Source: Nemertoderma westbladi | Lineage: Eukaryota > Animalia > Xenacoelomorpha | Direction of reading: 5' to 3' | Assembly (NCBI GenBank): GCA_032718475.1 | Contig: JAUCBJ010008134.1 | Span: forward strand, 1 to 62,387 | DNA length: 62,387 nt | Shown here: positions 3,632 to 62,310 of the stretch, in pieces | How the letters are laid out: the number at the start of each line of letters is the position of its first letter | Numbering within the stretch: position 1 is the first letter of the stretch | Program-made: the position numbers and the translations under genes | Notes under the pieces: model-generated | What the model was told of the DNA's origin: nothing | The model's input: the letters and a program-made list of their open reading frames with translations, nothing else | Database searches by the model: none

Positions 3632-3640
3632 GGGGGGGAG
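3632..3640 (+). promoter_or_regulatory. Polypurine tract of copy A
   Basis: GGGGGGGAG immediately before the LTR-initial TGTTAGC; preceded by hairpin GCTATCTTC/GAAGATAGC (3605-3629). Confidence 0.85.
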
Positions 3641-20670: not shown

Positions 20671-21325
20671 GAGTACATGTTGTCTGGTTGGAGATTGGCA
20701 TTGGATGTGAGGGATAAGGGGGATCGCGACCTGCTTTCGTTGCCATGGAAATGTCAGACACCCTCCCCCAGTATCCATGACATCCCCGATCCCATCTAGG
20801 TATTCAGGAATTGATTTAAATATTTAATATGTAAGATAATAAATACCGGTAACAAACAGTAAACTTTGAGCTACTACTGTAGCATGCTACACGATGTAAG
20901 TAGCTGACAGCTGACACCAGCTTAAATTACTGTAACTTTGAATTTCCCGCGCTGTATATTTTATAAAGGCAGTGATTTTTTATGTCCTTTTATTTGACTT
21001 TTTTTGTCATTTTTTTTTTACGAATTATGCATAATGACTTTTGTTGTCCTTTTAATGACTTTTATTGTCCTTTTAATGACTTTTTATGTATGTATTTCTT
21101 CAAACTGTCAGACTGCTGATTTCTGGACTTTCAGACAGTTGATTTCACTATGCCTGTGCCAAAACATTCCACGATTCCATGATTTATAGACTATGAGATA
21201 GATTTCCATATGCGCCTGTGGTAAAAAGACTCTATATTTAATAGTTTGTGGTTTTTGTCGATAATCGATTACCACATGACGTAGCAAAACACTCATTTTA
21301 TAGCCAAAAACAATTACCAATTGAT

Positions 21326-37815: not shown

Positions 37816-38979
37816 TGTTCGCGCTTTTAGACCTTTAGCAGTTTAACCTGCCAAATTTAGGTGTCTTTTAAGTTATAAATCGACTTTAGCCTATGACGAG
37901 TATTTGATACACTACATTAGCCGAAGCCAGCCTATGCGCGACCATTCACCCGCTGGATATACCCGGGAGACTGGATTCGGAAGCTCTGACCTTATTGCGG
38001 TGTAGGCCTACTGTATTATTCGATTGATCGTTAATATATAATCTCTGACCAATATTATTCACTTTCGGGAAATATTAACAGTTCCTTTAGGACGTGGCGC
38101 TCTAAGTATGTAAACAGAGTTATGACTTACACTAGACACAACAGGATGGCTATTGATTCACGTATAAAGCGCATTCTTTAGGAGATGCTTTGTTATCTAT
38201 CACACTCATGCACACTACCGCACAATACTGCACACCGATCTGCCAACCTTCACTAATTTTAGTCACATATAAAGAGAACAGCAACCGACACATGTAGTGC
38301 CTATGAAATAGCATTAGATTCACTCCAAAACCACTTTAATGTAAGTCGCAATTGTTATATGTAACCGGTCTCTCTAACCTTCAGTATATCAAGAAGATTG
38401 GGGTTTTCTGATTATTTATCGATATTATCCAAATATAACAATATTCCATCAACTGATACAAATTAATAACCGACAGTAAATAGCAGTAAAATAATGCGGT
38501 GAAAGCATAATGCATATGTACTGAGTTGGTTTGATAACAGTTATACGTTTCTATGATCAAAGCCTACTAATGTTTGGCTAAAGTCTGAAACTTCCACAGA
38601 AGTACAGAAGAATCCTAAGCCGGTGTTCTGGGCTTAGAAAGATACATACTGACTGAATTGCGTGAGTTTCTATATGCACTGTCCAACACAAAGAAAATCG
38701 CTCTGATTGGTCGACCGAACAAAGAACAAGGGAAAAATTACACGTGTACATATCAGCTGATAGATGTCGTCATCGTAACTACACTGTATCAAGAGGATTT
38801 TGGCTTATTGCGACATAAAATCGCTAGTTATGTCCGCTAAAGTACACATACAGAAGAAATGGCTTTTTATGTCCACTAAAACACCTGTACAGTAAGGAAA
38901 CGGCTTTTTATGTCCGCTAAAACACCTACAGAGTACTTTGCGGGGAAAATAACTAGCTAGATCCGCAAAAGCCTTTACA
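37816..38979 (-). repeat. 3' LTR of element C (about 1164 bp)
   Basis: Minus strand reads PPT-like GGGAGCGG then TGTAAAGGC...CGCGAACA; 37816-38369 is repeated at 51103-51656; the 38979 boundary is inferred from the PPT. Confidence 0.7.
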
Positions 38980-39057
38980 CCGCTCCCAGAAAATGGGATT
39001 TAATTCTATAAAATATAAAAAATCACAGTTTCTAAAATATAAAAATACTCTAAACAG

Positions 39058-40612
39058 TTAGTTTTTCTTGCGCGGACGGCGTTTACGCAGTTTTTTGAGG
39101 CTAGCAAGAGTCCTTTTCTCTTTGGGGCGAGCCACTTTACTAGGAGGGCTATAACTCCTGGGTGAAGGGTGCAATACAATTGCATCGGAAGGTTTAGGAT
39201 TACGGTCGGTGTATCCGCCGGTCGAGGTACCTGGTTGATCGATATCAACCTCAGTGGAACGAGGTCGAACAACCTTGAGAGCGCATTTTAAGACAGCAGC
39301 CCTTATTGGTCCCTGACGATTCGTCTGCACAAGAGCGGTAGGTGGACCGTGTGTAGTGAGAAATTTCCTCGGTTTGATGATTCTTTTCAACTCGCGTTCT
39401 CGGGCTCTATCGGAATCGATATGCTTCTCCTCGAGCTGATTTTCCTCCGCTTGTCTGTCGGAAGCATTCGTCTAAAACTCTTGCAGAAAGTAGAGTCGTC
39501 CAAGTTCGATATCTTCTTAGAGATTCTGGATTTCCTCGATCGAACTGAGATAAAGCTAATTCGTTTACAGCTTGGACCTGCTGCTGCAATTTACGTTTCT
39601 CTAAACAATTGTAGGTTCCTTTTCCGATCTTTTGACGAATAGTGTCCAACGCGTTTCGTACAACTCTCTCCCTCCGCCTCGGTGACAGGTTGTATCGGGT
39701 TAAACAGGGACGATGATACGGTTGAATGGCGATATTAGATGTCCGCGTCCCAATCCGGCTAGGTAAGATGGGCGAATATTTAGGGAGCCCACAACCGGAG
39801 TGCCACCGACTAACTGTTCGGGTAACACTAGATCTTTGAACAGTGAGTACAGTTCGGGAGGATCCGTGATACTATTAGGATCAAGAGTCTGAGGTCTAAC
39901 TAGGGAATGAGGAGGTCTGACCGAGTATTCCGGAACTCTGATCATAGGTTTATTTAAGGATCGTTTGAATCGAGCGAGCGTAGGTGATACATCGAACAAG
40001 TTTCGCTCGAAACTCCCGTAAATATAGCGAGTAAAACCGTGTTTAAAACAACGTCTCCGCAGATGTTTATGTTTTTCCGTTTGTTGGTTGGGTCTTGGGC
40101 ATTCATCGCAATAATACCAAAGACGCACGTCTTGTAGGGGAAACGCGGGTGATATTTATTCGGTTTTACAACGTTTCTCTCAAGAATTCCAAATATACGT
40201 TGGAGTTACTGCGTTTATCCGGTTCTTTAACGTCTTCTCTTTCGAGTCGATTTCGAATAGAATTTTCGCATTCGATTTTCAGTTTATCGTTCCGACTCCG
40301 CTGGGTAGGATATTTAAACAGTACCATTTCCCTTTCGGTGTCGACATCGTCCGTATCGTGTAAATCGATAAGATGACCAATAGTTAAGAAGTCCATATAC
40401 GTACCATTACGATGCGTATAGCGAGCAGTGAATTTTCGATAGTCCAATTCACGCGTAAGTTGCTCCTGGGACATCGGCGGTTCGATATAACGACCATCGT
40501 CCTTCGTAGTAGTTGGACTAGCGTCGCTGCGTATCAAGCTATCAACAAACGCTTGCAAAGGTAGAGTATATCGCTCCCTGATACCAAGATCATCTTCTAT
40601 CAACTCAGTCAT
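39058..40612 (-). pseudogene. Orphan coding-like region between the pol remnant and 3' LTR of element C
   Basis: Four consecutive same-strand ORFs (148, 142, 80, 110 aa) in a GC-richer island ending in a basic tail; no family recognised. Confidence 0.5.
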
Positions 40613-42317
40613 ATCTGCTATATGAGTTTATTAATATTATAATGAGTTTATAATTAGGCTAGCGGGCGTCGCTGCCTACCCCTCTCGGCCCCCGGACAGT
40701 GCAAGATCCTCAGCGCTGGTGTACTTTCGCCGATGTGCCTATCGCCAACGTAGTAGCTGCACAACGACCACAACAACCAGCGCGAGTCACTCCACCGTCC
40801 GTCCCAAAGGCTTAGATTTACTTCAGGTTCTTACTGGAGAGTTAGGGCTACTTTCACAATTGCGACTCGCTACTGTAAACACACTTTAGTAGTAACATTC
40901 ACCTATAAACGCACAAATTCCACACAACTGTCACAAATTGTACACATGCAGGCCATTTGTCCGTTAGTCAGTGCCTTCCAGAATGCCACGTTATTATTAT
41001 GTATCCTTGGATACTAGCAGTGTGCTATTTATTCCCTATGCTATTCAATGGGGCAAGCCTTTATTGTTCTTTTAACTCACTTCTAATTCTAGCGTGGTTG
41101 TTGCCATGGTGACATTATGGAAAGCTAGCAGTAGAATTAGGGTAATTCTCATGCATACAGATCTGGGATGCTATTTAATAGTAATTCTTTAATTGTCAAT
41201 ATTCCTCTTTATACATGATTTTATGAATTTTATCGGCTATTGACTATATATTGGAGATTCTCGCACACTAATACACTTAATAGGGTGAATCTCCGCTCCC
41301 ATGATCTATTAATTAATGGAATTTTGGGAATGTTATAAATTGCATAAAAATGACAATTTATCAAATTCATTAAAAGATATGAATTTAAATTTATTCCCGT
41401 AAATTTTATTATTTAATATTAAAATAGACACAATTTTATTCCAGAACATATCTGGGGACTGGGATCCTTGATTCTAGGAAATTTGTTCTTTTAAGAGTAT
41501 CGGTAAGTGCTACGATATCTTAATTGACTAGAATTTTAAAGGATCTAAATTTTGACAGATTTTAATTTATAGATTTTCTAGAGTTAACTTGTAAGTAGTT
41601 ACTCTATTGTATCTATTTGACAGATTTTATAAATATTAATAATTAATATTTAAGATGGGCACCGGTTTATTCCAGAACATGTCTGGGGACATTAACCATT
41701 GATTCTAGAATTTTGTCTTTCAAGTATATCGGTGGGTGCCGCGATATCTTAATCGACTAGAATTACAGATGGTCAAAGGGTTCAACAGATTTATTTTGCG
41801 TTTTACGCTACTGTTAAAGGGACATCACGCTACTATATGTATTATTTAATATACGGTATGAGAGCAATATCGCAAGAAGCAATGTCAGTGAGAAGAGGCA
41901 AGTCGTTTCCAAGGTCTACCCAGAGCTTGGTTTAGCCGAGACACGAGGATCTGAACTTTGCATTCCTAATACTCTACTTACCAATAATACTTGAATATAG
42001 TAGGAGCTTTATTGTACTTTAATAAGTACGGACATTTCATCTTACTGTAGTCACGTATTTATAATATGATACGGACAGTAAGGAAAGAGAAAAAGAATTA
42101 TTTCTCGCCGTCGCACTAAATATATAATATATAAGTAATTAAGTAATAAACACTAATATATATTGCACTAATCTACTAAATAATCGCTAAAATAACATTC
42201 TACTAAATAAAATTAAAGAAAACGATTATAATAAAATTACATAATAATACATACATAAATATAAAATAATAAAAACAAATATAAAATAATATAGTCACAC
42301 ACCCACTCCAGACGCTG

Positions 42318-45300
42318 TTACGTTGGGGAGTCCCTAGATGTTTGTTGGATTAGGGAGGTGGTCGTGGGAAGAGTATCTTGCCTTCCATAGTTTCCGGACA
42401 GTTCTCGGTCTCTTTCCAGTAAACATAAACGACCAACTGGGCGATTGAGTTGTTGTGTTTCGAATACAATTCCAGGTTTCCTCTTCGTCCTGGAATAGTG
42501 ACGATAGAAACATCGCTTCAAATACACGACGGCCTTACAAAGCCGATTCCAGGATCTATAGTGGTCCATCGCTCCCGGCAGGAGAGGTGAGAGTCCCGGC
42601 GAGACGTCTGGTGTTCCAGATCTCCAGTCTCTCTCTCTGATCTCCACAACAGATCGGTTCGCGGTGGGGGAGTTTAGATCCACAGCGTCGTCCCTGGCAA
42701 TGTGTAGTACAGACAGATCTATCACGGGTTTAAATAACCTTGATTTACTCGTCCGGGTTTTAGGTTTGACTTTCTCCGCTCCCTTGGCTTGTCTAATCTC
42801 AGCCGTGGTAAGATGGGGAGGCCATTCATCTTCTTTACTTAGGAAGTCGGGTCCACCTAACCAGTCTGGAGTATCTGTCAGTTCTTGAGGAGTTGCTCCT
42901 CTGGAAGCGATGTCGGCTAGATTAATCGTCTCGGGGCAATGTCTCCATTGATCTACATTGGAGTTAATATCGTCATTATCTGAGGAGTATGGTGTTCCCT
43001 CAGTTGGGTCGTCTACCTCACTGCTCTCCGCTTCCCATTCACTTACTTGGTATACCCGTTCTTTTGGTAACCTTTCCATGAGAGTTCTACGGGAAGGGCC
43101 AGTAAAGTACCAACCTACTCTAGTTCTTCCCGCATAGGCTTGTAGTGGTTGCGGTTGAGCAGGCCGTTTCTCCAATGTCTCAAGCGCCTCATGCGCATTT
43201 TGGCCGATGAGTATTTGCACTCCAGGGTAGTCTGTGTTGAATCTAGGTATCTTAAGCTGCTGGGTGAAATCGTCCTCATCCCAGTTATAAGGTTCTACTT
43301 GGCTGGTAGCGAAGTTCTTTATCGCCACCATTTTTACTGACCTTATACTGTGTTCTCCTAGTTCATCCTGGGGGGTGGACAACGCACCTACATAATAATC
43401 TGCTATTACTGTAGATTTCCAAACCTGCATAATTCCTGACATGTTTAACTTAGTTCGGAACTTGGGTTGTCCAGCAAAGATGTCTTCGGCTAGTTCTTTG
43501 TCGATGAATGTTCCTGTGCTACCGGAGTCAAGGAGGGCGTTCACTATATAACTCCTTTCAGGTCCGTGGACCCTCAACTGCACTACGGGAAATTCTCGGA
43601 TTCCTACATTGGAAGTTGGTGCTTTCCAAGATGGTTGTCGGTCAGAAGTAGTTAGGGGGAGCTCGCTGTCGGTGTCCTTTTCATACGTAAGTGCTCGATA
43701 CACTGCGGTATTTATCAGGTAACAGGATTCGTTTTCGTCGGAGAATTCGTCCGTATAGAATCCTTCCATCTCAGAACTTTGGTCAGTGTCGTTCACATCA
43801 CTGAATTGGACATGTAGTTCGGACTCACTTACCTGACTCGGGCTGTTTCGTTCGAATTCAGTGTGCAACAAGATATGATGTTTTGCGCCGCACTTTGCAC
43901 ACCTTGCGTCGGAGTAACAGGTTCGCCGTTGGTGTCCTCGTCTGAGGCAATTATAACACAACCGCTTATCCCACATGACTTCACGTCTATCCTTTAGTGA
44001 TTTCCTCAGGAATTCATCACACGCACTTAAACGGTGGGGCCCGTCGCACAGCACACGTTTTGGTTTGATGTTACTTACCTTACTTTGGGTAACGTTGTGC
44101 ACACTCGTTCTTTCTTCGGGCTTTCTTACATGAATTCTCTTAGGAGACGTAGGAGGAGTTTTTCTTACCTGTTCTCTCCTGTCATTGGTTCGAGACTTGA
44201 ATTTACTTACGTCCTTAGGCGCTTTGTTGTCATAGTAAGATCTTTCAGTGTCTTTCCCGCTGTCTTCCTCTTGAGAAACCTGGCTTTCGCCGTCGTCTGT
44301 ATAACACACGGGTATTACCTTTCTCCTAGAAACGGGTTTCTCACTTACCTTATTTTCCGGTGTCTTCTCTCTGGACTGTTTTAGGAGCTGTAATTTTACC
44401 TCTCCATCTAAGAATGACATGAGATCAGCCATGGTAGGGTCTCGTCGTTGTTGTTCCATCATATATAACACTTTCTTATCCCAGCGTGTACCTACTCCAC
44501 CCTTCGGTAAAGTAGAGGCCACGGCTCCAATAACCATAGAACTCTGATATTCATGAGACTTACCTAGCCAATCTAATTGTCTACAGATCTCCTGAATCTC
44601 ATTGGAAAACTCTATAATCCCGCTGCTAATGAACTTTCGGGGGGCTACCAATTTTGCATACAAATACCTAGCTATGTTATTCCTATTACCATACCTGATG
44701 TTTAGTGTATCCCAAACTTGTCTTAATCCATCTGGATGTCCAATAAACTTTAACGCCATTAACTTGGGAGATCCTTCCAAGCACTCGATGAGGAATCTAA
44801 GTTTCTCTCCGTTAGATAGCACAGAGTTCTGTATGTTATCTTTGTAATATTCATTAAAAGGTAACCATTTCATCTCATCTCCATTGAACTTGACGATCTC
44901 TCCCACCTTTACCGCTTGACGGGCTTCGGTTCTAGCCATTTGACGCGTAAAACTTTCTTGGGCCATTGTGTTATTTAATATCGAGTTATCGGTATATAAA
45001 TTTCTCGGATTATGATCAGGTCTATATGGAATATCATTGTCAACAGGTTTATAATTACCCTTAATAGGGTTTACTATAGGAGTTTCCACTTCACTAGCAG
45101 TATAGATGCGTGTAGGCTCCACACCTTGCGCATGAAATACTTCAGACCTAACAGGTTGACACATTGTTACAGGGGGTGGTGGTATACCCTTTTGTGTATT
45201 TACTAATTTATCGCGTTCTAACGCGATACTTTGCTGCACTTCTTGCAACTCTAACCTACTTTCCCTTACTGTTCCCTTAAACTGATGAACAGTCTCCTGC

Positions 45301-45710
45301 ATCTGCCCGAGCAGGAGATTCATCCCTCGCCGCCCCTCATCCACCCACTCGACCGCCGAAGCGGGAGCCGCCAACATAGTAGCGGGCAGACGAGAGACGA
45401 CGGGCGATAAATTCTTGATATCTCGCTCGGCGTCCAGGACGGGTTCGGACTCGGGAACAGTCCTACTGGGCACAGGTAGTTTAGTACTGTGCAAAGGGAA
45501 TTTAGAGGTAGGTTCTGGGAGTACAGGTGTCTCTATCACCGAAGGGGTGGCTTCGAGAACAGGCCTAATTATTTCAGGCTCATCTACTATAGTAGGGAGT
45601 CTTTCTATTTTAATTATTTGGTCTGTGGGTTCTGTACTACCTATGTCTGTGCTAGCTAGTTGCCTTCTAACAGCTGGGGGCAAATCAGGCAATTTCTGAC
45701 GGTGGGACAT
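42318..45710 (-). CDS. BEL Gag-protease fused in frame to RNase H-end and integrase-end remnants (1130 aa)
   Basis: DUF1759-like KFNGD..W..F..EKLRFL; knuckles CYNCLRRGH..C and CAKCGAKHHILLH; protease ALLDSGS; then WRHCP..NLADIASRG..WLGGPDFL and RPVGRLCLLE. Confidence 0.88.
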   Translation of the reverse strand: MSHRQKLPDLPPAVRRQLASTDIGSTEPTDQIIKIERLPTIVDEPEIIRPVLEATPSVIETPVLPEPTSKFPLHSTKLPVPSRTVPESEPVLDAERDIKNLSPVVSRLPATMLAAPASAVEWVDEGRRGMNLLLGQMQETVHQFKGTVRESRLELQEVQQSIALERDKLVNTQKGIPPPPVTMCQPVRSEVFHAQGVEPTRIYTASEVETPIVNPIKGNYKPVDNDIPYRPDHNPRNLYTDNSILNNTMAQESFTRQMARTEARQAVKVGEIVKFNGDEMKWLPFNEYYKDNIQNSVLSNGEKLRFLIECLEGSPKLMALKFIGHPDGLRQVWDTLNIRYGNRNNIARYLYAKLVAPRKFISSGIIEFSNEIQEICRQLDWLGKSHEYQSSMVIGAVASTLPKGGVGTRWDKKVLYMMEQQRRDPTMADLMSFLDGEVKLQLLKQSREKTPENKVSEKPVSRRKVIPVCYTDDGESQVSQEEDSGKDTERSYYDNKAPKDVSKFKSRTNDRREQVRKTPPTSPKRIHVRKPEERTSVHNVTQSKVSNIKPKRVLCDGPHRLSACDEFLRKSLKDRREVMWDKRLCYNCLRRGHQRRTCYSDARCAKCGAKHHILLHTEFERNSPSQVSESELHVQFSDVNDTDQSSEMEGFYTDEFSDENESCYLINTAVYRALTYEKDTDSELPLTTSDRQPSWKAPTSNVGIREFPVVQLRVHGPERSYIVNALLDSGSTGTFIDKELAEDIFAGQPKFRTKLNMSGIMQVWKSTVIADYYVGALSTPQDELGEHSIRSVKMVAIKNFATSQVEPYNWDEDDFTQQLKIPRFNTDYPGVQILIGQNAHEALETLEKRPAQPQPLQAYAGRTRVGWYFTGPSRRTLMERLPKERVYQVSEWEAESSEVDDPTEGTPYSSDNDDINSNVDQWRHCPETINLADIASRGATPQELTDTPDWLGGPDFLSKEDEWPPHLTTAEIRQAKGAEKVKPKTRTSKSRLFKPVIDLSVLHIARDDAVDLNSPTANRSVVEIRERDWRSGTPDVSPGLSPLLPGAMDHYRSWNRLCKAVVYLKRCFYRHYSRTKRKPGIVFETQQLNRPVGRLCLLERDRELSGNYGRQDTLPTTTSLIQQTSRDSPT

Positions 45711-47392
45711 TCTTCTACGCCTACTTAGACGAGATCTATTTCCTCCGCCTTCAGGATCGGTGGTATCGCCTTCATCAGAGGATGTAAATCCCTGTCGTTT
45801 GGGAGTAGATCAACTCATCATCTGCATTTGACTAGCTGTTAACTGTTCATTGAAGTTGTCTTGCCTCTCTTGAAGATTTTCCAACTCTAGTTGGGTTGTG
45901 TCTTCAGATGCCCTCCGTTCTGCTTCTGCCACTGCCGCTTTTCTTTCTGCTTCTGCCGCTTTTCTTTCCGCTTCTGCCCCTGCCACTGCCGCTTTTCTTT
46001 CCACTTCGGCCGCTTTTCTTTCCGCTTCTGCCGCTGCCACTGCCGCTTTTCTTTCCACATCGGCCGCTTTTCTTTCCGCTTCTGCCGCTGCCATTGCCGC
46101 TTTCTTTTCCACTTCTGCTGCCTTTCTTTCCGCTTCTGCCGCTGCCATTGCCGCTTTATTTCCACTTCTGCTGCCTTTCTTTCCGCTTCTGCCTCTGCCG
46201 CTGCCGCTGCTGCTGTCTTTCTGTCTTCTATACGTTTTTTCTTTACTTGTTCTTCTTGAACCTTAGCGATGCGGATGCTTTCATCAAATTTAGCTTGGTT
46301 CGCAGCTGACATTTCCGCATCTATTGCGTCCAGCACAAACTTGGCTCCTTCACTATTATGGCGAAGTCCATCTAGCCTTCTCCTCAACTCTTCATCACCT
46401 AGAAAGCGTTGATAGTCTGACAGATAGATGTCAATAGCATCCCTCTTATGCGGTTTCTCTGCTGTCGCTTCGCTTTCCACTTGAGAAAAGGTAGCGTCTG
46501 TTGATTCTCCATGGGTTGAGCGCTCAGCCAGCTGAGATTTCCACTGGGCCGTTCCTTGAACCTTGAGACTCACCCGCTGGAACCAAGTCTTTACAGCAAC
46601 TTGCAACAACGTGTCTTGTCTCCTTTTCGAAGCTTCCTCAAAGGCCGATAGGATTAGTCTGATTCTTAGAATTCTTTCTCTAACTTGATAAAGCAGCTCT
46701 CCCTGCTCTTGAGGTCCTTGGGGTTGTCGAAACAGTTGTTCCTCTAATCGCTCCAAAGAGCTGAAGAATCCCTGTACGTATCCTGCTGCCGACCTCTTCC
46801 ATACAGCTGGATCACTGGTGTCTTTTGTCACTCCCATCCTGTGTATGTCTTCCCAGGCAGCTTCCGATAAGTCAAACGGGAGTCCGGGTCCGGGGAAGTT
46901 CCATTGCGACTCGACAATAGACTTCAGTTCTTCCCTTGTGTATCCCGCATAACTATCCTTGGTCGATCGCTTACTTCTTGCCCAATCAATCTGGTGTTCC
47001 TCCACCGCAATCAATACCCTAGTGAGTACGGCTGCAGGAAGGATGAGAAGGGGATCCGAATAAACCGCATCTGCCATCTTTGCTCCACGCTCGGGTGTCA
47101 GCTCTACAGTATCCGCACTACTGGAGCTGTCGGGCCGCTGAGAAATAAGTTCTCGGCTCGAGTGTTGCTGCTGTTCCGCTGCTTCTTGGTCTCGCTTGAC
47201 TTGAGCTCGAGTGCCTATGATAGACCTACGGTGTTGGACTAGCCTAGGGTCTGATATTACTACTGGAGGGATGATCTTTCTTACAGTAGGAGGTGAGTTG
47301 AACTTCGGTCTCACACGTTCCACACTCCTATCTGGGTCACAGATGGTTGTATCTAGGAGACTGTCTGACAGGTTTTGCTTTGTGTCAGACAT
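45711..47392 (-). pseudogene. Gag N-terminal part of element C with an Ala/Glu/Arg/Lys coiled-coil repeat
   Basis: One frameshift near 46155 and one in-frame TGA (45810-45812) exactly 33 codons upstream of the 45710 ATG; 54-bp repeat encoding AAVAAAEAERKAAEVERK. Confidence 0.8.
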
Positions 47393-48618
47393 GTTTGTTT
47401 GTACAGTTGAATGCCTACTGCTATATTACAGTTAAAGCAAGTCTAGTAATTCAGTATCAACTGTTAGCCTAGTAATTAATTACCGATATCGTTACTCAGT
47501 GTGACGTAATATATATACACAATATATTAGAATACCAGTATACACTTATAGTATATATAAGTATTATTACAGACTAGGTTTGTCACAGAATACCGGTATA
47601 TAATTTCAGCACAAATATATATAAATATATATAAGCCTATCGTGAATACCGGTATACAACTTACACTTATAGTATATATAAGTATAATTATAGACTAGAA
47701 TTAATTACAGAATACCGGTATATAATTTCAGCACAAATATATATAAATAAATATAATAAGCCTATTGTAAATACCGGTATGTCAATTATTTTAGAATAAT
47801 TTAATTTCTGAATTTTTAAGGGGTTACTTAGTTACTTTACTTGACTTTATTACCGTTATTTAAGCAGTAGTCCAACTGATATTAAGACCTAATTGTTGTA
47901 TGACAGGCCTACTATTTTATAAATCTGTTTGAGTTGATTTATAATATATATATATACTGGGTTTTTGTCAATGTTTGAAATAAATGTTATTATTTCTGGG
48001 AAGCGTCACCGCACAGAAGCTGTACGCTCTCAGTGAAGTGCTACTTGTTGGACACTAAAACAAATAATTCTAATTTACCTAAGTTACTTAATACTACAAA
48101 TTACGTACAATTCGGGGTGAGATTACAATCTCTAAATAAACACAAAAAATTTACACGTACAAATTTTAGGGGTAATTTTACAAGAAGTCTACAAACCAGC
48201 CTAACAAAGGGTTAGAATATCTGGTTATTATTAACGGACAGGATACCACGGTATTTGAAAATAATAAGCAGTAGTAAATATATTGCGTTGTCCAGATAGG
48301 AAAAATACCACCGTCTGACGACTTATAGCCGTATCGCTATAAGTACTACGTTATGTATCACGGAGTGTTCCTACCTAGAAGTTAATTACCGCGGCCAACC
48401 AGAGCCAACGTGCCTATTAACCACTTTACAACACAAATATACTGCCTACACACTAATTACCTTCGGAAAGCACTGTAAACTAAACCCTAAATTAGGTACA
48501 AGTACTTATACAACAAATAACCAGCAGTTAGAAATACTTATACAGCTAAAGGAACCACGGTATCTGCCGGAGTGACCAAAGCATAATATCTCCAGTCTTT
48601 ACCTACGCCAAACAGCCC

Positions 48619-50118
48619 TACTACTACTACTAGGATCGGCATGCTGCATTGCAGCTGCATTTTTAAGAATGCTGTGCCGGCTTGTCAACAAAATTGCACC
48701 GCCACAACTCCCTATCACCCATGACATTTGCTAGATCATCCGCATCTTTAAGGCCAGTGTCCTTTAAGATGCGTCTCAAGAAAGTCATGGGCTGTCCACC
48801 ATGCTTATTCACTCCATGAGGCTGCCAAAGTACAAGATTATGCACTGGCTGGTCCTCACGGCGAAAGCAATGTCCTGCAAAGCGGAGGCGATTTTGTTCT
48901 AGTGTCAAGCTTGGGGGAACCAATGAGACACCTCCAATGTTATATAGTGTCTGGTTGGAGATGTATGCATTGTACTTGACACAATGTACCCGGCGTAGCA
49001 TTCTTGTGAATGTGCCATCCAGAGATTTGGTGTCCTCAGCAGTTAGAGCCCAGCATGGACTCCCGTAGAGGAGTACTGGAACTACTGCTGCTCTAAATAA
49101 TCGGACCTTAAGTTTCCGATTAATTCTAGGTGACTTCCAAATCCTGGAAAGCCTATTCAAGGCTGCCCATGCCTTTCCCTTACGTATTCGAAGGTCCTCA
49201 CCTGACTTCCGGATCCATGATCCCAGGTAACAGAAGTCGTCCACATGCTCAAGCATACCATCATTTGAGCTTATGCTCATCCGATCAGAGACTTGCTGAG
49301 GACTTTCAAAGTTAACTGTCAGAATTTTGGTCTTTCTGGAGTTAATAAAAAGACCAACACTAGAAGCAGCATGTTCTAATGAGCTGAGGAGCCGCTGGGC
49401 TCCCTCTAATGATTCTGAGAGTACTCCTAAGTCATCAGCAAAGTCTAGATCAGATAGGTACTTGGCAGGATTTCCTCGACTTCTGGAGCCAGTAGGTGGA
49501 GTTATCATCACCCCATCATCATTATGATGATCTAAGGACATGCGTAGAACATAGTCAACCACAATAATGAACAAGAATGGTGCAAGTGTGTCTCCTTGGA
49601 GGACGCCCCATAACACTTCAAATGGTTCTGTGTCACCGTCAACAGTAGACACAAATGTTGTCGAACCATCGTATACTGATCTGATTGCTGCAATAATTTC
49701 ATCAGGAATCCCATATAATGAAAGTATGCTGAACATACGTGAGCGAGAGACTGAATCAAAGGCCTTGAAGAAGTCAACAAAGATAACAGCCAGATGCCTG
49801 TCTTTCTTTTTTGATAACTCTTCAATTATCCTTCTAAGTGCCAAAATGGGCTCCATGGTCCCACGACCTTTACGGAACCCATTCTGATTTCCACGTAGCA
49901 GTCTCTCAATGGGATCCCTGATGCGATTTAATAGAATTCTATTGTATAGTTTTGCAGCAATCGAGATCAATGAGATTCCCCGAAAAGAACCATAGAGTGT
50001 TAGGTTGCCCTTCTTGGGAACTGGCACCAACTTATTTGTTTTCATTTCTTGTGGGACTCTTGTTGTACGGTACATGTCTACTATGATGGGATAGATGAGC
50101 TTTAAACACTCAGGTATT
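48619..50118 (-). mobile_element. 5'-truncated RTE-like LINE inside element C
   Basis: (TAG)n tail at 48619-48633; same family as 17491-18916; no TSD found. Confidence 0.9.
48663..50075 (-). CDS. RTE-like reverse transcriptase, open 470-aa frame without an endonuclease domain
   Basis: QNGFRKGRGT, DFFKAFDSV, GVLQGDTLAPFLF, LDFADD, FCYLGS, RLRFAGH. Confidence 0.88.
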   Translation of the reverse strand: MYRTTRVPQEMKTNKLVPVPKKGNLTLYGSFRGISLISIAAKLYNRILLNRIRDPIERLLRGNQNGFRKGRGTMEPILALRRIIEELSKKKDRHLAVIFVDFFKAFDSVSRSRMFSILSLYGIPDEIIAAIRSVYDGSTTFVSTVDGDTEPFEVLWGVLQGDTLAPFLFIIVVDYVLRMSLDHHNDDGVMITPPTGSRSRGNPAKYLSDLDFADDLGVLSESLEGAQRLLSSLEHAASSVGLFINSRKTKILTVNFESPQQVSDRMSISSNDGMLEHVDDFCYLGSWIRKSGEDLRIRKGKAWAALNRLSRIWKSPRINRKLKVRLFRAAVVPVLLYGSPCWALTAEDTKSLDGTFTRMLRRVHCVKYNAYISNQTLYNIGGVSLVPPSLTLEQNRLRFAGHCFRREDQPVHNLVLWQPHGVNKHGGQPMTFLRRILKDTGLKDADDLANVMGDRELWRCNFVDKPAQHS

Positions 50119-50266
50119 TACAGGTATTCATTTCCTGATGTAGTACCGGGGTTAATTTAACTATAACGGTATGTATAACAAGCACAATTACTGTAGGAAT
50201 AAACTTGGGGGTATGAATGTTGCGAATAATCGCATAAACTCTGAATAATAAATATTACGCTACGCC

Positions 50267-50823
50267 TACAGACTACTCAAACAAAATACAGACCAAACGC
50301 TGGCAGACTACTATCAAGCCCAAACAAACTACAGTATATGCAGACTCCGAAATGGTTAGTTAGTATGCGTTCTAACCGAGTAGTACGACTTATTCTTTCA
50401 GGGGGATTTACCTTACAGCACTGGATGCCACCCACTTTCCTAACTTGTACTTTATCGGACATACACTCTACACACACCGCAATCTCTTCAGACCTAACAA
50501 CAGCCAGGCAACAATCCAGCCTACAAATTATCTAAATAAGAAATATTACACTACCCGTACAGACTACACAAACAAAATACAGACCAAACGCTGGCAGACT
50601 ACTATCAAGCCTAAACAAACTACAGTATATGCAGACTCCAAAATGGTTAGTTAGTATGCGTTCTAACCGAGTAGTATGACTTATTCTTTCGGGGGGATTT
50701 ACCTCACAGCACTGGAAGCCCCTACGTTCCTAACTAGTACTTTATCGGACATACACTCTACACACACTGCAATCTCTTCAGACTTAACAACAGTCAGACA
50801 ACAGTCCAGCCTACAAATTATCT
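50267..50823. repeat. Tandem duplication (period about 291 bp) in the 5' leader of element C
   Basis: ACAGACTAC.CAAACAAAATACAGACCAAACGCTGG...CCTACAAATTATCT occurs twice. Confidence 0.9.
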
Positions 50824-51102
50824 GTACAATCTGAGCAGGCTTACATGTCTTCTGCTCAATATTAACCTACAAATAAATAAAACTGACAGAAATAAGTAAA
50901 CCATACAAAGGAATAAGGGGTGATCAATCCCTAATCCCCTAACAGCCTACAATATACAATATATCACAATCGAAATAATACTGGTACCTGTACTGCAGTA
51001 AGTACCGGTTCGGGTGGTTAGGTAGTCAGGCCTACTGGTTACCGGTTGACCAGTACTTCAGCTTTATTGCCTACGTTGCAATACAGAAGCAATAACTGTT
51101 AT

Positions 51103-51656
51103 TGTTCGCGCTTTTAGACCTTTAGCAGTTTAACCTGCCAAATTTAGGTGTCTTTTAAGTTATAAATCGACTTTAGCCTATGACGAGTATTTGATACACT
51201 ACATTAGCCGAAGCCAGCCTATGCGCGACCATTCACCCGCTGGATATACCTGGGAGACTGGATTCGGAAGCTCTGACCTTATTGCGGTGTAGGCCTACTG
51301 TATTATTCGATTGATCGTTAATATATAATCTCTGACCAATATTATTCACTTTCGGGAAATATTAACAGTTCCTTTAGGACGTGGCGCTCTAAGTATGTAA
51401 ACAGAGTTATGACTTACACTAGACACAACAGGATGGCTATTGATTCACGTATAAAGTGAATTCTTTAGGAGATGCTTTGTTATCTATCACACTCATGCAC
51501 ACTACCGCACAATACTGCACACCGATCTGCCGACCTTCACTAATTTTAGTCACATATAAAGAGAACAGCAACCGACACATGTAGTGCCTATGAAATAGCA
51601 TTAGATTCACTCCAAAACCACTTTAATGTAAGTCGCAATTGTTATATGTAACCGGT
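51103..51656 (-). repeat. 5' LTR of element C, truncated on its outer side
   Basis: About 4 mismatches versus 37816-38369 by eye. Confidence 0.85.
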
Positions 51657-54621: not shown

Positions 54622-55193
54622 TGTGACGGGATCCGAGAATCCCAACCGGTGTGGTTTGTTTATTTACGCGTCCCCGCCGCCAGTGAAAGAGTTCGTTATA
54701 TCGTTCCAACGTTGTTAATGAATATAAAATATAGTATCGAATAAGATAAGTTGACAGATAGCACAGTTGATGGTAAAATATAAGTTGACCGGTAAAATAT
54801 TGATGGTGGTGGCGGCAACGATGGTAATAAAGGTTACCGTCCTGCCCTAACTGAACTGACTAAGTTGACTAAATGAAATGACAAGTATCAAAGGGTAATA
54901 TACTGCACTGGTTTGGCCGTATTACTCAGCGGATGCCTGCCCCCCATTGGCTAATAACCTAATTCTCGCCCTCCCATCTCTCTGGGAGTGTCTTCCCCCT
55001 CCACTGTCACTTTCCCTCTCCCGGGGGTGTAACCTCTGACCCCTATTGTGTGTGGCCCTTTGGGGTTCATCGTCCCCGTTTATTGGGGGTGATACGAGGT
55101 TGGTTGGTAATCAACCTCGTACTCCCCAATATTGCTTAAAGGCCCTGCTTATCCAACTTTGTGGGGTGGTTAGCGGAATTGAATTCGCTAACA
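54622..55193 (-). repeat. 3' LTR of copy B (572 bp)
   Basis: TGTTAGCG...GGATCCCGTCACA preceded by PPT AGAGGGGGGGAG (55194-55205); homologous to 3641-4181. Confidence 0.85.
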
Positions 55194-56295
55194 CTCCCCC
55201 CCTCTGATATGGCGTATACACCTCCCCGTCTACTAGATGTCGGCAGTTATAATATACCGACTTGCCCTTCAGCCCCGGGTGGTCTACCAGACCCTCGAAA
55301 GCCGTCTTGAAGGCTCTTCTGTAGTTCAGGGGTGATCCCGATAACAGGAATGCCGTTGGTTCTCTCTCGATAACCACGGTCATGAATAGGTTTAGCAAAC
55401 CCATCATTATCCAGTCCTCCTGCAGGATATATCGCTTCTGATATACCTTTATCGCTCCTCTCCGGAATTGATACACCTCTTGTTTCCCTGGCCTCGCTCC
55501 CCACTTCAGCGAGTTTGCTAACTCCGCTCCGTACTCCCCTCTGAATTTACCCCAGTCCATTGGTTTGTGACACACAAGCCCCATTAGCTGGCCCATCGCC
55601 ACTGCTCCACAATGGCCTGCGTTCTCCACTAGTCCCAACCCGTCTGGTGCTGTCATAGCCATGTAGACCGTCTGCATGTCCAGGAGGTTGGGGGTGTCTG
55701 GACCGATGATTCTCTCCGCATCGTCGCGGATCGCTGATCCCACCTTTGTCGTCGACTTCTCTCTTACTAGGGTTTGCACCGCCTTTGGCAACCGGTTCAA
55801 CTTCGGCCCGTTCTTCTTCCCATACGTTCCCAGGTCGAATAGGAAAATGTCCCCATTTGGCGCGGCCAAATGTAGTAGTATGGTTCTGGCCGACCCCGCC
55901 GATCCTCTTCTCGAACCTTCCTCGTCTTCCACGGTCCCCTCATCGTCTAGGGCCATGTATCCTCCCCTGTTGACGGACTCTACGAACCTCTTCCAATCCT
56001 TTCTCAGTGACTCCTTCACGTACTTCGGAATCCCGAACTTCGCCTCTTCTCCCTTCACCACGTAGTGGAAATGCTCGAAGATCGCGTTGTCCAGCGACGG
56101 CGTCCCATAGGTCCCGACCAGCTGCTGTTCGTGCACTTCCCTGAAATGGTCCTGTAGCGCTCGCTCTTTGTGACCTCTCTCTAACCACTCGTAGTATCCC
56201 CTCGTCTTTTCTTCCGGATGCCTCTCGGTGAAATCCACCAGTATCTCCTTTCCTCCTAACTCCGCCTTTCTCTTTCTGACCAGTTTCTCCGCCAT
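55111..56295 (-). CDS. Accessory DEDDy-type 3'-5' exonuclease (EXD1/WRN/RNase D-like), 394 aa from the shared ATG
   Basis: ExoI YMALDDEG; LLHLA..IFLFDL; LP..V..LV..KVG..IRDDA (ExoII); LLDMQ; ExoIII-like QKRYILQED; N-terminal RKRK; ATG conserved in copy A. Confidence 0.78.
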   Translation of the reverse strand: MAEKLVRKRKAELGGKEILVDFTERHPEEKTRGYYEWLERGHKERALQDHFREVHEQQLVGTYGTPSLDNAIFEHFHYVVKGEEAKFGIPKYVKESLRKDWKRFVESVNRGGYMALDDEGTVEDEEGSRRGSAGSARTILLHLAAPNGDIFLFDLGTYGKKNGPKLNRLPKAVQTLVREKSTTKVGSAIRDDAERIIGPDTPNLLDMQTVYMAMTAPDGLGLVENAGHCGAVAMGQLMGLVCHKPMDWGKFRGEYGAELANSLKWGARPGKQEVYQFRRGAIKVYQKRYILQEDWIMMGLLNLFMTVVIEREPTAFLLSGSPLNYRRAFKTAFEGLVDHPGLKGKSVYYNCRHLVDGEVYTPYQRGGVLANSIPLTTPQSWISRAFKQYWGVRG

Positions 56296-56799
56296 TTCGA
56301 ACTCTCTCACTCGCTCACCTGTAAGGTGGTGCCTTGCCAAGGCGCAGTACAGATGAATGATAAGGTTAGGATGGTTTATACAGTCCGGTAATGGCCTACT
56401 TCTCACAGAATTCTAAGTTATCGCCTAATTTTCCTACCTAATTTTCTAAAACTGTCAAATTGTACTAAATTTCGTAATTCTGTCCGTTACTTTAATTATG
56501 TTCCAGAATATTTCTCCTACTGTTACCATAATTTGTCTAATTTCTAATTTTATCTTTATTTTAATTTAATTAATCCTACTACTGTGCCATCAGTATTCGC
56601 CAATGGATTATTCTATTCTATAATCCGCATTCTGGCCTACTCTGTGGGATTGTGCAGTACAACAGTATGCGTCGCGTGACCTACACGATTTATCCAGCTG
56701 TACCCACGTGCCCCCTCTCGCTACTCACTACTACCTCTACTAACTTCCTAATTAATCTCTACTAACTCTCACTATATTTTATATCATACCTACCTTCCT

Positions 56800-57385
56800 A
56801 CCACTAACTCTTGCTACTAACGGTACTATACGTACCCTCTTACTAACTTCTAACTAACTCCTACTAACCGGTACTACGTACCCCCTTACTAACCTCTAAC
56901 TTCACTAACTCTTACTAACCAGTACTACGTACCCTCTTACTAACTTCTAACTCCACTAACTCTTACTAACTGGTACTATGTACCCTCTTACTAACTTCTA
57001 ACTCTACTAACTCTTACTAACCGGTACTACGTACCCTCTTACTAACTTCTAACTCTACTAACTCTTACTAACTGGTACTACGTACCCTCTTACTAACTTC
57101 TAACTCTACTAACTCTTACTAACCGGTACTACGTACCCTCTTACTAACTTCTAACTCCACTAACTCTTACTAACCGGTACTATGTACCCTCTTACTACCT
57201 TCTAACTCTCTCAACTAACGGTACTACGTACCCTCTTACTACTAACTAATTATCTAACTAACGGTACTACGTACCCTCTTACTGCTAACTAACTATCTAA
57301 CTAACGGTACTACATACCCTCTTACTACTAACTCTTACTAACTTCTATCTGCCTACTTGCTCACTACGTACCTACTACGTACTAT
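56800..57385 (-). repeat. Tandem hairpin array of copy B (about 11-12 units, about 44-51 bp)
   Basis: Sense unit GAGTTAGAAGTTAGTAAGAG-GGTACGTAGTACC-GGTTAGTAA...; same core as 600-1410. Confidence 0.95.
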
Positions 57386-57496
57386 TACTTTCCTTTTCTT
57401 TATTTATTATTTTTTTATATTTATGTGTGGGAAGGGCGTCTCGCCCTCAATCCCACCCCCCTCAGTCCAACATTTGGACGACTAAACTCAACTCAA

Positions 57497-58932
57497 CTAA
57501 GGTGCGCCCTCTAGCAGGCAGCATTTTCCTACAGCCCTCCTGTAGGTCTTTCTATCTTTCGCTCCTATCTTACCACCTATCCGCACTTCTACTGATCGGA
57601 CTCTTCTGTCCTCATCGGAGTAAGTGCCCACAACTCTCGCCAATCGCCATTGGTTGTTGATGATAGTGTCATCCGTGACGATCACCAGATCACCCTCCTT
57701 TAACTCCCTATTTGTATTCCTCCACTTGCTTCTCCTATGAAGCGTGGGTAGATATTCCTCAACCCACCTCCTCCAGTACTCCGCGCTTATCGCCTTGGCG
57801 ACTTTCCAACTCTGTCGGGAGTGTATATCGTCTGGGTCTACACCCCGCATGTCGATGGTCGCCGGCCTCTCCATTAGAAAGTGACTGGGTGTCAGCACAT
57901 CTAATGACTCTGGGTCATCATTTTCTGGATATAGTGGTCTGCTATTAATGATATCCTCACACTTTGCTAGTACCGTCCTCAGTACGTCTTCTGTTACCAT
58001 GTGGGTGTTCATCAACTTCGTCATCAGACGCTTGGAACTACCCATGAGTCTCTCGACGCATCCTAGAGTATGCGGAGCATCCGGCGTCCTCCTCTCCCAC
58101 TTCACTTGTCGTCTTCTCATGGCTGCCCTGACTTCCTCCCCTTCCATGATTCCAAGGCGTCTGCCAGCTCGTTCTCTGCCCCCACAAAGTTGGTTCTGTT
58201 GTCGGAGTATATTACTGCGATCGTCCCACCTTTGCGGTCTCTGAACCTTTCTAGGGCATTGATGAATGCCGATGCTGTTACATCTTGGGCGAGTTCTATC
58301 CCTACCGCCCGTGTGTTGTTACATATGAAGATAATGCCGTAGCGCTTCTCCGTGTGCCGCATCACCTTAATCTTTATCGGCCCGAACATATCCACACCGC
58401 AGTGCGTGAATGGCGGGTCGTGCTGTCTCACCCTACTGGCCGGTAGTGGCGCCATCTCCTCTATGGCTCGCTCCTTCTTCATTCGTCGGCAGGTCTGGCA
58501 CTGCCCCACTACTGCCTTTACCTTCTTTCTTAACTGTTTGACCCAAAAGGTCCTTTGTATCTCTGTGAGGGTTCGGTTGGTGCCCCCGTACAATATCGAT
58601 TTATGGGAGTCCCAGATGATCTGGTGGACTATCGGCGATCCATTAGGGATGATGATGGGCTTTGGTGGAATGATGATACTGTTGTTGTTCAACACCCTAG
58701 AGTTCATTACTAAGATTCCATCATCATTGAGTTGTGGTGACAGCGTGATCAGCTCACTGTCCCGTCGGAGATACTGTTGTTTACCGACGCGTTCCACCTC
58801 ATCGCCGTAGTTCTTTCTCTGTTCGTAGCGGATGACGGCCTTGGCCGCTCCCTCCAGAACGATGTGTGGTTTATTTTTTATGTCTTTACCGACTCCCTTG
58901 AGGAAATCCCCGAAGGCTCTCCAGTACGCCAC
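57497..58932 (-). pseudogene. BEL integrase, frameshifted near 58130
   Basis: Zinc region ..CQTC, PFTHCGVDMFGP, IYSDNRTNFVGA, VERL and DUF5641-type tail. Confidence 0.92.
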
Positions 58933-59156
58933 TAACTTCTTGGTCTTGTACCAACTTGAGCTGTAGCTAAGGAGTTATCGCACAGTTCTTCCGGTTTTGG
59001 TTGCACGTCCCTTATCTCCCTCACCATCTGGCTATATATCTCTTCACCTTCTGAATCTCCTCCCTCTTCCTCTAATGCTACTTCTCCTGAGCCCGGGTCC
59101 ACCTTTCTCATCGGCGGCCAGGCTGTCTTATCATTCAGAAATTGTGGCCCATTTTG

Positions 59157-60759
59157 CTACAATACTTCCTTCTTCAAGAAAGTGTGGCGTGCTATGCCCC
59201 TCGATAACAAGTCCGCTGGGTTCTCGTCCATTGGGCAGTAGTGCCACCTTTCCAATTCCGTCGTCGCTCTTATTTCGTCCACCCTATTTGCGACGAATAT
59301 AGGGTATCTCGTCCTTTCGTTAGGTAGCCAACCAAGCACTACCATGGAGTCCGTCCAGTAGTGTGTTTCCACTATGTTGGGAATAGCGTCCATTAAGTAG
59401 GTTGTGGCCCTAACTCCTAACCTCGCAGCTGTCAACTCGAGTTTTGGAACCGATGCTGAATCTGGCGGCGTTGACTTCGCTTTGCTGAATGCGAGTCTGG
59501 GCTTGTGAGCCCCCTCTCGTTGTACTAAGTAGAGTGCTGCTCCGTATGCCTCTAATGACGCATCGGAGAACATAGATCCAGATTCGTCATGTCCCCATCC
59601 GGGAAATACACGCGTGGCATGCTGTATGTTCCCATCTGTTCTAAACTCTCTGTCCACTTGCACCACTGCTTCCTGATCTCTTCTGGTACTTCTGTGTCCC
59701 ATTCTTCCTTTAATTTGTATACTTTCCTAAGTATCTGTTTCCCCATGACTAGTAGTGGGGATGCTAGGCCTAGGGGGTCGTATATCCTTGCTATGTACGA
59801 CACATAGCCCCTCTTTGTGTGGATGTCTGTGCCCTCCTGGCTCAACTGGTACTTCAACTCGTCCGTCTCTCTGTTCCACACGATCCCTAGTGCCTTCTGT
59901 TGGGACTCTACCCTTTTGTTCGCCATGTCCTGTTCCTTGGCTGTCGTGGGATTATCCATGGTCGACTCTGGCCTCCTGTCCTCTATGGCTTTCATGAACT
60001 TTGTTGGAACTTGGTTAGGTTAAACCCGGATCCTTTTAGGATGTCGCGAACTTCGCGCCCCGTATCCAGTAGTTCCTTAACCGTATTTCCAGACTCCATC
60101 CCGTCGTCTACATAGAAGCCGCGTTGAATCATATCGACGGCTTTGGCGCTATATTTATCTTCCTTTCCTTCTACCGTGTCCCTCATGGCCACAGTCGTCG
60201 TGAAAGAGGACGACTTGGCCCCCATATTCTGAACTACCATCTTATACATTGGTATTGTCGATGGTTCCTCGTCACCATTGTACCATAGGAAGCGCTGACT
60301 GTCGCTATCCTCTTCCATTACACGGACTTGGTTGAACATGCCTTCGATGTCGCAGGTGAAGGCGTGTTTTCCATTCCTGAATCTGAGTAGGACCTCGATC
60401 CCTGAGTTATCGATATTGGGACCCTCCAACAGATAATCGTTTAGGCATTTGCCGTCGGTCTTGGCCGACGCGTCAACTACCATCCGCAGTTTACCTTTCT
60501 TTGGATCTAGAGCCACATGGAGTGGCAGGTAATAGGTCCTGTCCGTGCTTGGTTCGTCGACCGGTAACTCTATGGCCCATCCTTTCTCGACATACTTCTT
60601 AATCGTCTTATGAATGTACTCATTCTTTTCGGGGCTCCGTTTTAGTGTTTGCTTCAACTTACGAAGCCTCGTGAGTACCATTCCTTTATTGTCGGATAGC
60701 GGTAGCTTCGGTAGTTTCCATACCATCCCTATGGTATACCGCCCCTCATTGCATGTCAT
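59157..60759 (-). pseudogene. BEL reverse transcriptase and RNase H, frameshifted
   Basis: YYLPLH..KLRMVVDAS..CLND..CDIEGMFNQV..QRFLW..FYVDD; IYDPLGL; FSDAS..AYGA; PKLEL; WTDS; NPADLLSRG. Confidence 0.93.
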
Positions 60760-62310
60760 CGATTCCTTTACGCTTTGTAAAGCCTTTGTAAAGCTGCGTC
60801 GCCGCGTACAGCAGTGATTGTCTGAGCTTTGGCAATGCGTTCGCCGTGTTATGTTCTGGTTTCGGCCTGTGGTATTCGGTCTTTGGTCCCTTTCCCAGGC
60901 TATCCTCGCTATAGACTGGGTCCGTTATTAGTTCGGCTTCATAGTTTAAGAAGCTCGACATTTCTTCTAAACCCGGTTCCGCACCCTTCTTGTCTCGAGT
61001 TGAGAAAGCAATCTTCCTCCACTTGTTGCGCAACCAATCGGCAGTGCCTGCGCTATCATGGTGATGTTATTAGACGCGTTGAGTTTGTATTGTGTGTCCA
61101 GTGTCTTTAGTACGACTAGCGCCTTCTCAACTTTGTTCGCGAATGTCTTTATGCTAACGGGGTTATCCTGTAGGCCACCCGATGTTATACCTCTCAGGGT
61201 CTGCCGGATGATCTTGGCCGGGTGCCCGTACTCCCTGTCTAGTGCCCGCCATGCTGTCGTGAAGCCGCCCTCGATGCCCTGGTATTGCCTCACGATGTCG
61301 TATGCTGGGCCTCCTGTGTACACTTGCAGATACTTTAGGCACTCCGCTTGTGTCAAATTCTTCGTTAGTATTTCATTGCTATACATTCGCCGAAACTGCA
61401 GGTATTCTTCCGGCCTGCTTCCATCGAATTTAAACGGTTCCACGGGTGGTAACTCGATCCTGGTTTTTAATGCATCGATCAATGTGGCCATCCCCATCGC
61501 TTGTGCTTCCAATGGGTTTGATGGATGCTGTATAGATTCTCCTGTTGGGTGTGGCCCGTTCGTCCTATTCGCTGCCTTTCTTTGGCTTGGATATATCATC
61601 GGGGATAGCGGCCCCCTCCATATTTCGGTGTCGCACGATCTATTCTCGTCCAAGGGGTTCGATGTTCTTATTCCTATTGGGGTATATTGTTGATATTGTG
61701 ATGGGGGAATGTCACCCTGCCCCCCCCCCCCCCCCCCCACCGGTATGTTTGATACTGGGGTTGATACTCGGCGCGTAGTATGCCTCGTCAGGTCGCGTCT
61801 CCCCGGGACGACGGCAATCTCCCGGAGTTCGACCCCACCGACTCTCCGTCTCCATCTCTACTACCGACGGCTCGCTATCCGTCCTCGCTCTCCTGTCGTT
61901 CGCGACAACACTTCCTCTACTCTCCCTCCTTTTTCTCTCTGCAGTGCAGTATCCCCGCTCGTGAGATCTCTCGTCGACCTCCTGGTTAAACTCCACTTTT
62001 CTTCTTCCCTCTTCTGATTGGGCTCGACGTCTCGTCGCTCGCCCTCTCGCAACGTCAACCTGTCTCCCTCTGCTCGATCGCAAGTCGCTGGGGATACTCG
62101 TAACCCCCCTACTATTCTCCATCGCCGGGTGCTGCGGTTCACCTAATTCGCCCCGTGCATTATCCGCCGACGCTTGTGGGACACTCTTTGCCCCCCCCCC
62201 CCCCCCCCCCTTTCGCCGCTAATCTCTCGTTGTGGGGCTCCTGTAGCCCCCCCCCCCTACACCCCTCTCCAATCGACACACTAACCCCACTGCGGCTGGG
62301 TCCATTATAA
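60746..62310 (-). pseudogene. BEL Gag remnant (DUF1759-like); zinc knuckles and protease deleted
   Basis: LPPVEPFKFDG..Y..F..CLKYL..L..EYG; joins RT near 60790 with no knuckle or DSG motif; 5' boundary uncertain. Confidence 0.8.

Follow-up and report, generated by a model that had tools for sequence, protein, structure and literature searches.

What does a BEL/Pao retrotransposon do with a third gene behind pol, and with the hairpins that precede that gene? The question is raised by a stretch of 62,387 nucleotides (nt) from Nemertoderma westbladi (GenBank assembly GCA_032718475.1, contig JAUCBJ010008134.1, positions 1–62,387; hereafter the window), which holds two inverted and diverged copies of one element, copy A on the + strand and copy B on the − strand. 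The two copies share one order of features: the pol stop (A 490, B 57497), two hairpins, a tandem array of short hairpin cores, a structured leader and an extra open reading frame (ORF), ORF3. ORF3 is a genuine gene under purifying selection, the noncoding structures ahead of it are conserved, and its product matches a profile of DEDDy 3'-5' exonucleases across the ExoI and ExoII motifs. We tentatively favor a reading in which the ORF3 protein has a DEDDy exonuclease fold and acts on the RNA of its own element, with the array and leader as the putative binding site.

The order of features had been proposed in an earlier prediction from the sequence (the original prediction), and it is borne out by an alignment of B 57978–55541 with A 9–2650 at 75.6% identity. 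The host element is assigned to BEL/Pao by its Pfam domains, which in copy B follow the BEL/Pao order on the − strand: DUF1759, RVT_1, Peptidase_A17, Integrase_H2C2 and DUF5641. The three BEL-type domains all exceed the Pfam cut-off, namely DUF1759 in the gag fragment (60970–61857, −; PF03564, E 9e-11), Peptidase_A17 (E 1.6e-15) and DUF5641 (E 9e-24). Integrase_H2C2 has an E-value of 4e-11, and RVT_1 (E 6e-5) falls under the cut-off. The pol of copy B (57497–60924, −) thus keeps the order reverse transcriptase (RT), Peptidase_A17/RNase H region, integrase and DUF5641, with its pieces in differing frames, that is, with a broken reading frame. No Pfam match to a protease was found between gag and RT of copy B. 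Copy A starts at the window edge, inside the integrase C-terminus; this segment up to the pol stop (2–490, +) has 7 amino acid changes in 162 codons relative to B, with a ratio of nonsynonymous to synonymous substitution (dN/dS) of 0.019. The 5' ends of both copies fall outside the window, and no 5' long terminal repeat (LTR) lies within it.

At their 3' ends, both copies have a polypurine tract (PPT) and a TG...CA LTR, with the form GGGGGGGAG-TGTTAGC ... CACA. The PPT–LTR junction GGGGGGGAG-TGTTAGC is identical in the two (B 55202/55193, A 3632/3641). In copy B, the PPT (55194–55202, −) lies within ORF3 and is followed directly by a 572-nt LTR (54622–55193, −), whose boundaries are inferred from the two copies and which is 60% identical to the LTR of A. 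In copy A, the PPT is at 3632–3640 and the LTR at 3641–4181 (+). A PPT and LTR after the extra ORF are therefore present as predicted, only further out: copy A extends past 2924, the end claimed for it, and ORF3 of copy B runs through its PPT into the LTR. An alternative LTR start, at the run of purines that follows the pol stop (57456), was dropped because the standard PPT–TGT junction shared by the copies lies further down.

ORF3 of copy B has 394 codons (56295–55111, −), in agreement with the original prediction. Its 3' end (55111–55202, −) reads through the PPT (55202–55194) and on into the LTR (55193–54622). Copy A retains codons 1–252 (1897–2650, +), with a one-base deletion near 2245. 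Over 249 codons compared between the copies, there are 29 amino acid changes (dS 0.70, dN 0.067), giving a dN/dS of 0.095, far from 1 and to be set beside the integrase control value given above. The 14 changes amid many third-position differences noted earlier for the first part of the protein were recovered: the 113 codons compared there hold 14 amino acid changes, and 32 of their third positions differ.

Beyond codon 252, the copies part. The following 981 nt of copy A (2651–3631, +) are unrelated to the 339 nt of B's codons 253–365: their DNA local score was matched by 47 of 300 shuffles, and protein scores in three frames by 292, 31 and 159 of 300. The frame in A is open to 2924 and contains no ExoIII motif. 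Copy A ORF3 is frameshifted and, after codon 252, is without the region of B that holds Y289-x3-E293-D294. Within the unrelated segment, an AT-rich, intron-like stretch (2990–3140, +) has a Y-x3-D peptide behind it in one frame; this peptide has no profile support and is probably a chance occurrence.

Several samples have the family in multiple copies; among the sequencing runs listed as containing it, none is of RNA. Contigs from four sequencing runs (X1–X4, three samples) cover 30 of 30 bins from the LTR to the integrase, including pol, array and ORF3; the records number 5922, 12319, 5861 and 109 in X1 to X4, respectively, and are mostly 90–99% alike. The region after codon 252 is well covered in B's version, and the junction of A's 3' form to the PPT is seen in three contigs of X4. 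Among the differences listed (40 of 697), 19 fall in ORF3; 11 of these leave the amino acid unchanged, and one introduces a stop at codon 379, a position still inside the LTR. Most contig depth carries this stop (12128 of 15159 in X1), and so the 394-amino acid length looks specific to copy B. The median ratio of ORF3 to pol contig depth, which is not a measure of copy number, is 0.45, 0.74, 0.77 and 0.09 in X1 to X4; either the value in X4 opposes the presence of ORF3 in most copies, or X4 carries more distant relatives.

The DEDDy-like domain of ORF3 spans approximately residues 102–309 of copy B (D117, E119, D192 and Y289/E293/D294). We built DEDDy profiles from gathered PF01612 proteins; a ten-sequence profile ranks WRN, Mut-7 and EXD2 first in the PDB. 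A broader profile of 65 bacterial PF01612 proteins (25 of 120 proteins plus 40 loci) matched ORF3 with 12.9 bits (P 2.4e-6) at residues 102–196, with D117-x-E119 and K184-x-G..D192 in register. None of 6000 shuffles reached this score (shuffle maxima 7.6 and 8.2), and ORF3 was the best of 71 ORFs in the window, with only copy A close. A glocal alignment to the DEDDy family gave a z of 5.7 (60 shuffles). The ExoI motif D117-x-E119 is aligned to the DxE of the profile and forms a strand in the guided model described below, and is broken by the deletion in copy A; the ExoII residues K184, G186 and D192 (K-x-G-x5-D) are present in both copies. All 16 profile-critical residues checked are identical in A and B. 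The DEDDy reading is supported by these comparisons for the ExoI–ExoII half.

The noncoding cassette begins with the two post-stop hairpins, at 57427–57479 (−) in copy B and 516–569 (+) in copy A, which share their fold (z −2.2 in B, −3.1 in A) and are 86% identical. The tandem array of copy B (56802–57341, −) has units of 43/51 nt with 11 cores of GGTAC-GTA-GTACC and C-poor GTTAG spacers, and that of copy A (599–1401, +) has units of 32/36 nt with 24 cores. All 35 cores found (24 in A, 11 in B), with a search pattern that admits only near-core variants, either have the sequence GGTAC-GTA-GTACC or are variants of it that retain sense-strand pairing in a 5-bp stem. The cores persist between the copies while spacers and unit length diverge. 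The core was found nowhere else within the window, and no Rfam family matched it (a single chance match had an E-value of 0.93).

The leader begins with a structured block at 56585–56712 (−) in copy B, 79% identical to A 1484–1612, with a fold z of −1.75 in B and −4.48 in A. Of its 30 consensus pairs, 26 are the same in the two copies, 3 are changed on one side, 1 is compensatory and none is broken; differences occur in 5 of 60 paired versus 24 of 75 unpaired columns, for a structure derived from these same two sequences. An AT-rich middle (66% identity) separates this block from a second conserved block directly ahead of ORF3 (56296–56404, −; 81% identity), which contains a splice-acceptor-like site whose AG ends at 56319, with the ATG 23 nt further on. 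The leader of copy A (1484–1896, +) has the same structured block and AT-rich middle, and an acceptor-like AG ending at 1874; this AG is 22–23 nt upstream of the ATG in the two copies. Overall identity between the copies is 79–86% in the noncoding blocks, 60–66% in the LTR and AT-rich middle, and 54% at synonymous sites. Because the LTRs at 60% approximate the synonymous sites, the blocks at 79–86% are under constraint.

We propose that ORF3 would be expressed by splicing of its message at the conserved acceptor-like site. If so, the array and leader would remain only in the full-length RNA, where they would serve as candidate cis sites for the ORF3 protein. The protein would bind metal through D117, E119, D192 and E293 or D294, and would act on 3' ends, of either the element's RNA or intermediates of reverse transcription, by trimming or protecting them.

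The results that weigh against this proposal concern the fold, the fourth motif and the array. As for the fold, ORF3 has no homologues in Pfam, NCBIfam, PHROGs or PDB sequences, and PF01612 had no Pfam match to either the whole protein or the domain alone. A match to the DEDDy family was obtained with our own profile at residues 102–196 and not with these libraries. No homologues were found by a word search of 5.8 billion proteins at near and shorter lengths, nor in metagenome, viral and prokaryote contigs, and none that was credible by phmmer on 1.84 billion protein representatives; the sole phmmer match (P0001, E 3e-4), a repeat protein covering 34 residues, was discarded. A narrow profile of 121 proteins gave a P of 0.001 and hhalign a P of 0.15; an hhalign run against an alignment containing the query itself was discarded as circular. 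On a Pfam-sized scale, the P of 2.4e-6 corresponds to an E of ~0.06, for a family chosen in advance. Single-sequence AlphaFold2 failed, with a predicted local distance difference test score (pLDDT) of 32. Given the DEDDy alignment, AlphaFold2 returned a model with a mean pLDDT of 69 (core 82–92, insertion <50, helix 284–309 72–78), which is circular and has no control. This guided model resembles WRN, RNase D, Nibbler, Exd1 and Egl with Z of ~11–13 and root mean square deviations of 3.3–3.8 Å over 153–165 residues, again circularly.

These blank library searches, the failed independent prediction and the long insertions required to align ORF3 with DEDDy proteins would fit a genuine selected gene of some other fold, with its motifs present by chance and the array an ordinary hypervariable 3' repeat. 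We consider this very unlikely. The profile match beats every shuffle and all other window ORFs, of which only the second copy comes close, six motifs occur in family order, and the same type of gene is known at the same position elsewhere. ORF3 very probably has a DEDDy fold.

The fourth motif is less certain. Of the DEDDy series predicted originally, D117-x-E119, K184-x-G..D192 and D206-x-Q occur in this order in copy B, but the Y-x3-D expected after ExoII does not; copy B has only Y289-x3-E293 and then D294, preceded by an insertion of ~29 residues, and copy A has neither. ExoIII should lie ~12 residues after a conserved W. The spacing from K184 to W248 is 64 in ORF3 versus 61 in 117 of 120 EXD2-like proteins, and since W248 is thus at family spacing, the candidate ExoIII comes 41 residues on (24 after W265) rather than the 12 of 117 of 120 homologues. 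When the half after ExoII is scored by itself, 7 of 100 shuffles do as well as copy B, and 53 of 100 as well as copy A. ORF3 is not classed as a canonical DEDDy member because of this divergent ExoIII, and its active site is a putative one, with a fourth motif that is atypical in B, nonsignificant alone and missing in A. We judge it slightly more probable that the predicted catalysis is intact than that it is lost.

The state of ExoIII would also suit a catalytically weak or dead DEDD-fold RNA binder, which would recognize the array or leader so that unspliced genomic RNA is exported or localized, as with Rev, CERV and Egalitarian. There are precedents in the available portions of two reports: the exonuclease-homology domain of Egl needs two RNA stem-loops for binding, and these are bound at a distance of 15 Å from its putative catalytic residues (PMC13186709), and a spliced accessory gene of Cer1 exports genomic RNA (PMC10309623). 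The array would, moreover, sit within the intron. Set against this, acidic residues occupy all four positions although ORF3 is only ~20% identical to its cellular relatives, as selection for metal binding would predict. This binder is a minority possibility that we nonetheless take seriously.

As for the array, its folding exceeds that of shuffled sequences only by a modest margin (z −3.8 for B and −1.4 for A), and core pairing provides modest support only, because of the restricted search pattern and because two core variants are compatible with CpG decay. In the available portion of PMC10794571, tandem repeats in the 3' region are described as common in LTR elements without a known role. Contact between the ORF3 protein and the array is itself a proposal, and no observation in this analysis links the two.

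The array might instead work without ORF3. Motifs of the RU1-3AG type bind Musashi and hnRNP A1, and the array could provide putative sites of this kind (RU1-3AG/UAG) for host proteins controlling splicing, translation or localization, an account compatible with the other readings. The pattern [AG]T1-3AG is dense in both arrays on the sense strand (11.6 per 100 nt, versus 1.2 window-wide) and has 0 occurrences on the antisense strand. A tandem repeat enriches any motif of its unit, however, and binding at these sites is putative; we regard this account as unlikely.

Nibbler/Mut-7 and Exd1 act in small-RNA pathways. As both are fold relatives that appear among the matches to the guided model, ORF3 might counter silencing as a nuclease, with host piRNA or siRNA being trimmed or destroyed by it, and the multi-copy state of the family in several samples would agree with this. 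Nibbler and Exd1 are, however, tied with WRN, RNase D and polymerase domains (Z 11.9–13.2, from the circular model). A role involving small RNAs was also raised for rotifer elements, where small RNAs still cover the families that have a DEDDy gene and these families show no clear gain in copy number (PMC5408684). Anti-piRNA action of ORF3 is possible, and as an account of the gene it is quite unlikely. The functions named in the original prediction (piRNA destruction, cDNA trimming and array processing) are all putative.

Rotifer elements are the closest known parallel to the reading we favor, in which ORF3 has an exonuclease fold and acts on the element's RNA. Juno and Vesta LTR elements of bdelloid rotifers acquired a DEDDy ORF3 at least twice, shared with Terminons, and roles in 3'-end processing and silencing were proposed for it (PMC5408684); the available portions of PMC5718144, PMC6338049 and PMC6431247 likewise describe it in Juno, Vesta and Terminons. 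As in these elements, to the extent described (PMC5408684; PMC6431247, in part), the gene here has an ORF of its own behind pol, where env would be, is DEDDy-like with an altered motif (DEED there) and is expected to be expressed by splicing. Unlike in Juno and Vesta, the host element is BEL/Pao, the altered motif is ExoIII, and the ORF has a hairpin array and a structured leader ahead of it; PMC5408684 nowhere uses the word 'tandem'. That study found no departure from neutrality within genomes for the env and GDSL ORFs sequenced. Protein searches with ORF3 did not return the Juno, Vesta or Terminon ORFs.

An extra nuclease-like gene is thus a type already known in other LTR retrotransposons, having been described in 2017, and what differs here is the BEL/Pao host and the RNA cassette. 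Whether the architecture is already catalogued was left undecided in the original prediction. No BEL/Pao element with a DEDDy gene was found in the literature, in a search outside of which lay Repbase, Dfam, GyDB, supplements and most subscription journals, so that an existing annotation is possible. The available portions of PMC8220671 and PMC11599104 contain nothing on a gene of the ORF3 type.

Canonical BEL elements had been said to encode gag and pol only, which is too narrow: BEL/Pao elements with env-like third genes include roo and mosquito elements with a chuvirus-like glycoprotein (PMC13524379, in its available portion). These share with the present element the superfamily and an additional gene behind pol. 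Unlike their env-like genes, ORF3 resembles a nuclease rather than a fusogen. It has 3 cysteines and a best 19-residue hydropathy mean of 1.32, indicating no strong hydrophobic segment, and neither a transmembrane anchor nor a cysteine-rich ectodomain was found in its sequence.

Among cellular DEDDy proteins (WRN-exo, EXD2, RNase D, Nibbler/Mut-7, Exd1 and the ExoHD of Egalitarian), ORF3 has ExoI and ExoII in register. It differs from them in its low identity (~20%), in insertions after DxE and before ExoIII, in having Y-x3-E or Y-x4-D in place of Y-x3-D, and in an extra 100-residue N-terminus and a C-terminus of ~70–85 residues that belong to no known family. The array recalls plant Tat/Ogre LTR elements, in which pol and the 3' LTR are separated by a tandem array that varies (PMC10794571, in part). 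Unlike in those elements as described there, the units of both copies here keep a 13-nt hairpin core, and a nuclease-like gene lies downstream.

No function was ever assigned to the DEDDy third genes of rotifer retroelements. That another such gene occurs in a different LTR superfamily, under clear purifying selection, suggests repeated capture for a shared need. A more far-reaching version, which we consider doubtful, is that this BEL/Pao lineage built its own control module: a captured DEDDy-fold protein from a spliced message, predicted to recognize the array in full-length RNA for nuclear exit or for shielding from small-RNA silencing, in a Rev/RRE-like but nuclease-derived system. With the unbroken ORF3 frame of copy B beside a defined candidate RNA target, the role of a retrotransposon exonuclease is directly testable in vitro.

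A third LTR element occupies 37811–51656 (−) of the window, with 559-nt LTRs that are 99% identical (37811–38369 and 51098–51656), a DUF1759 gag and, apart from a weak protease match, no sign of pol domains. A LINE is inserted in it at ~48620–50117. Its long 3' region contains a different, broken extra ORF (~40615–39060) with a C-x2-C...H..C motif and no Pfam or DEDDy match; the third genes of BEL elements in this host may be of several kinds. The noncoding 3' region of this element also holds a 135-nt duplication (41400–41764, 79% identity).

The zinc-finger arrays, LINEs and LTR elements give the window the look of repeat-rich invertebrate DNA. Elsewhere in the window, a non-LTR retrotransposon RT is present in two copies that are 97% identical (17081–18916, +, and 48620–50117, −). 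An ORF at 12407–12874 (−) presumably resembles the RNase H of Ty1/copia. Inverted paralogous C2H2 zinc-finger arrays, 81–92% alike, lie at 14439–15971 (+) and 23911–25152 (−), and a tandem array of ~13 copies of 68-nt units lies at 21206–22222.

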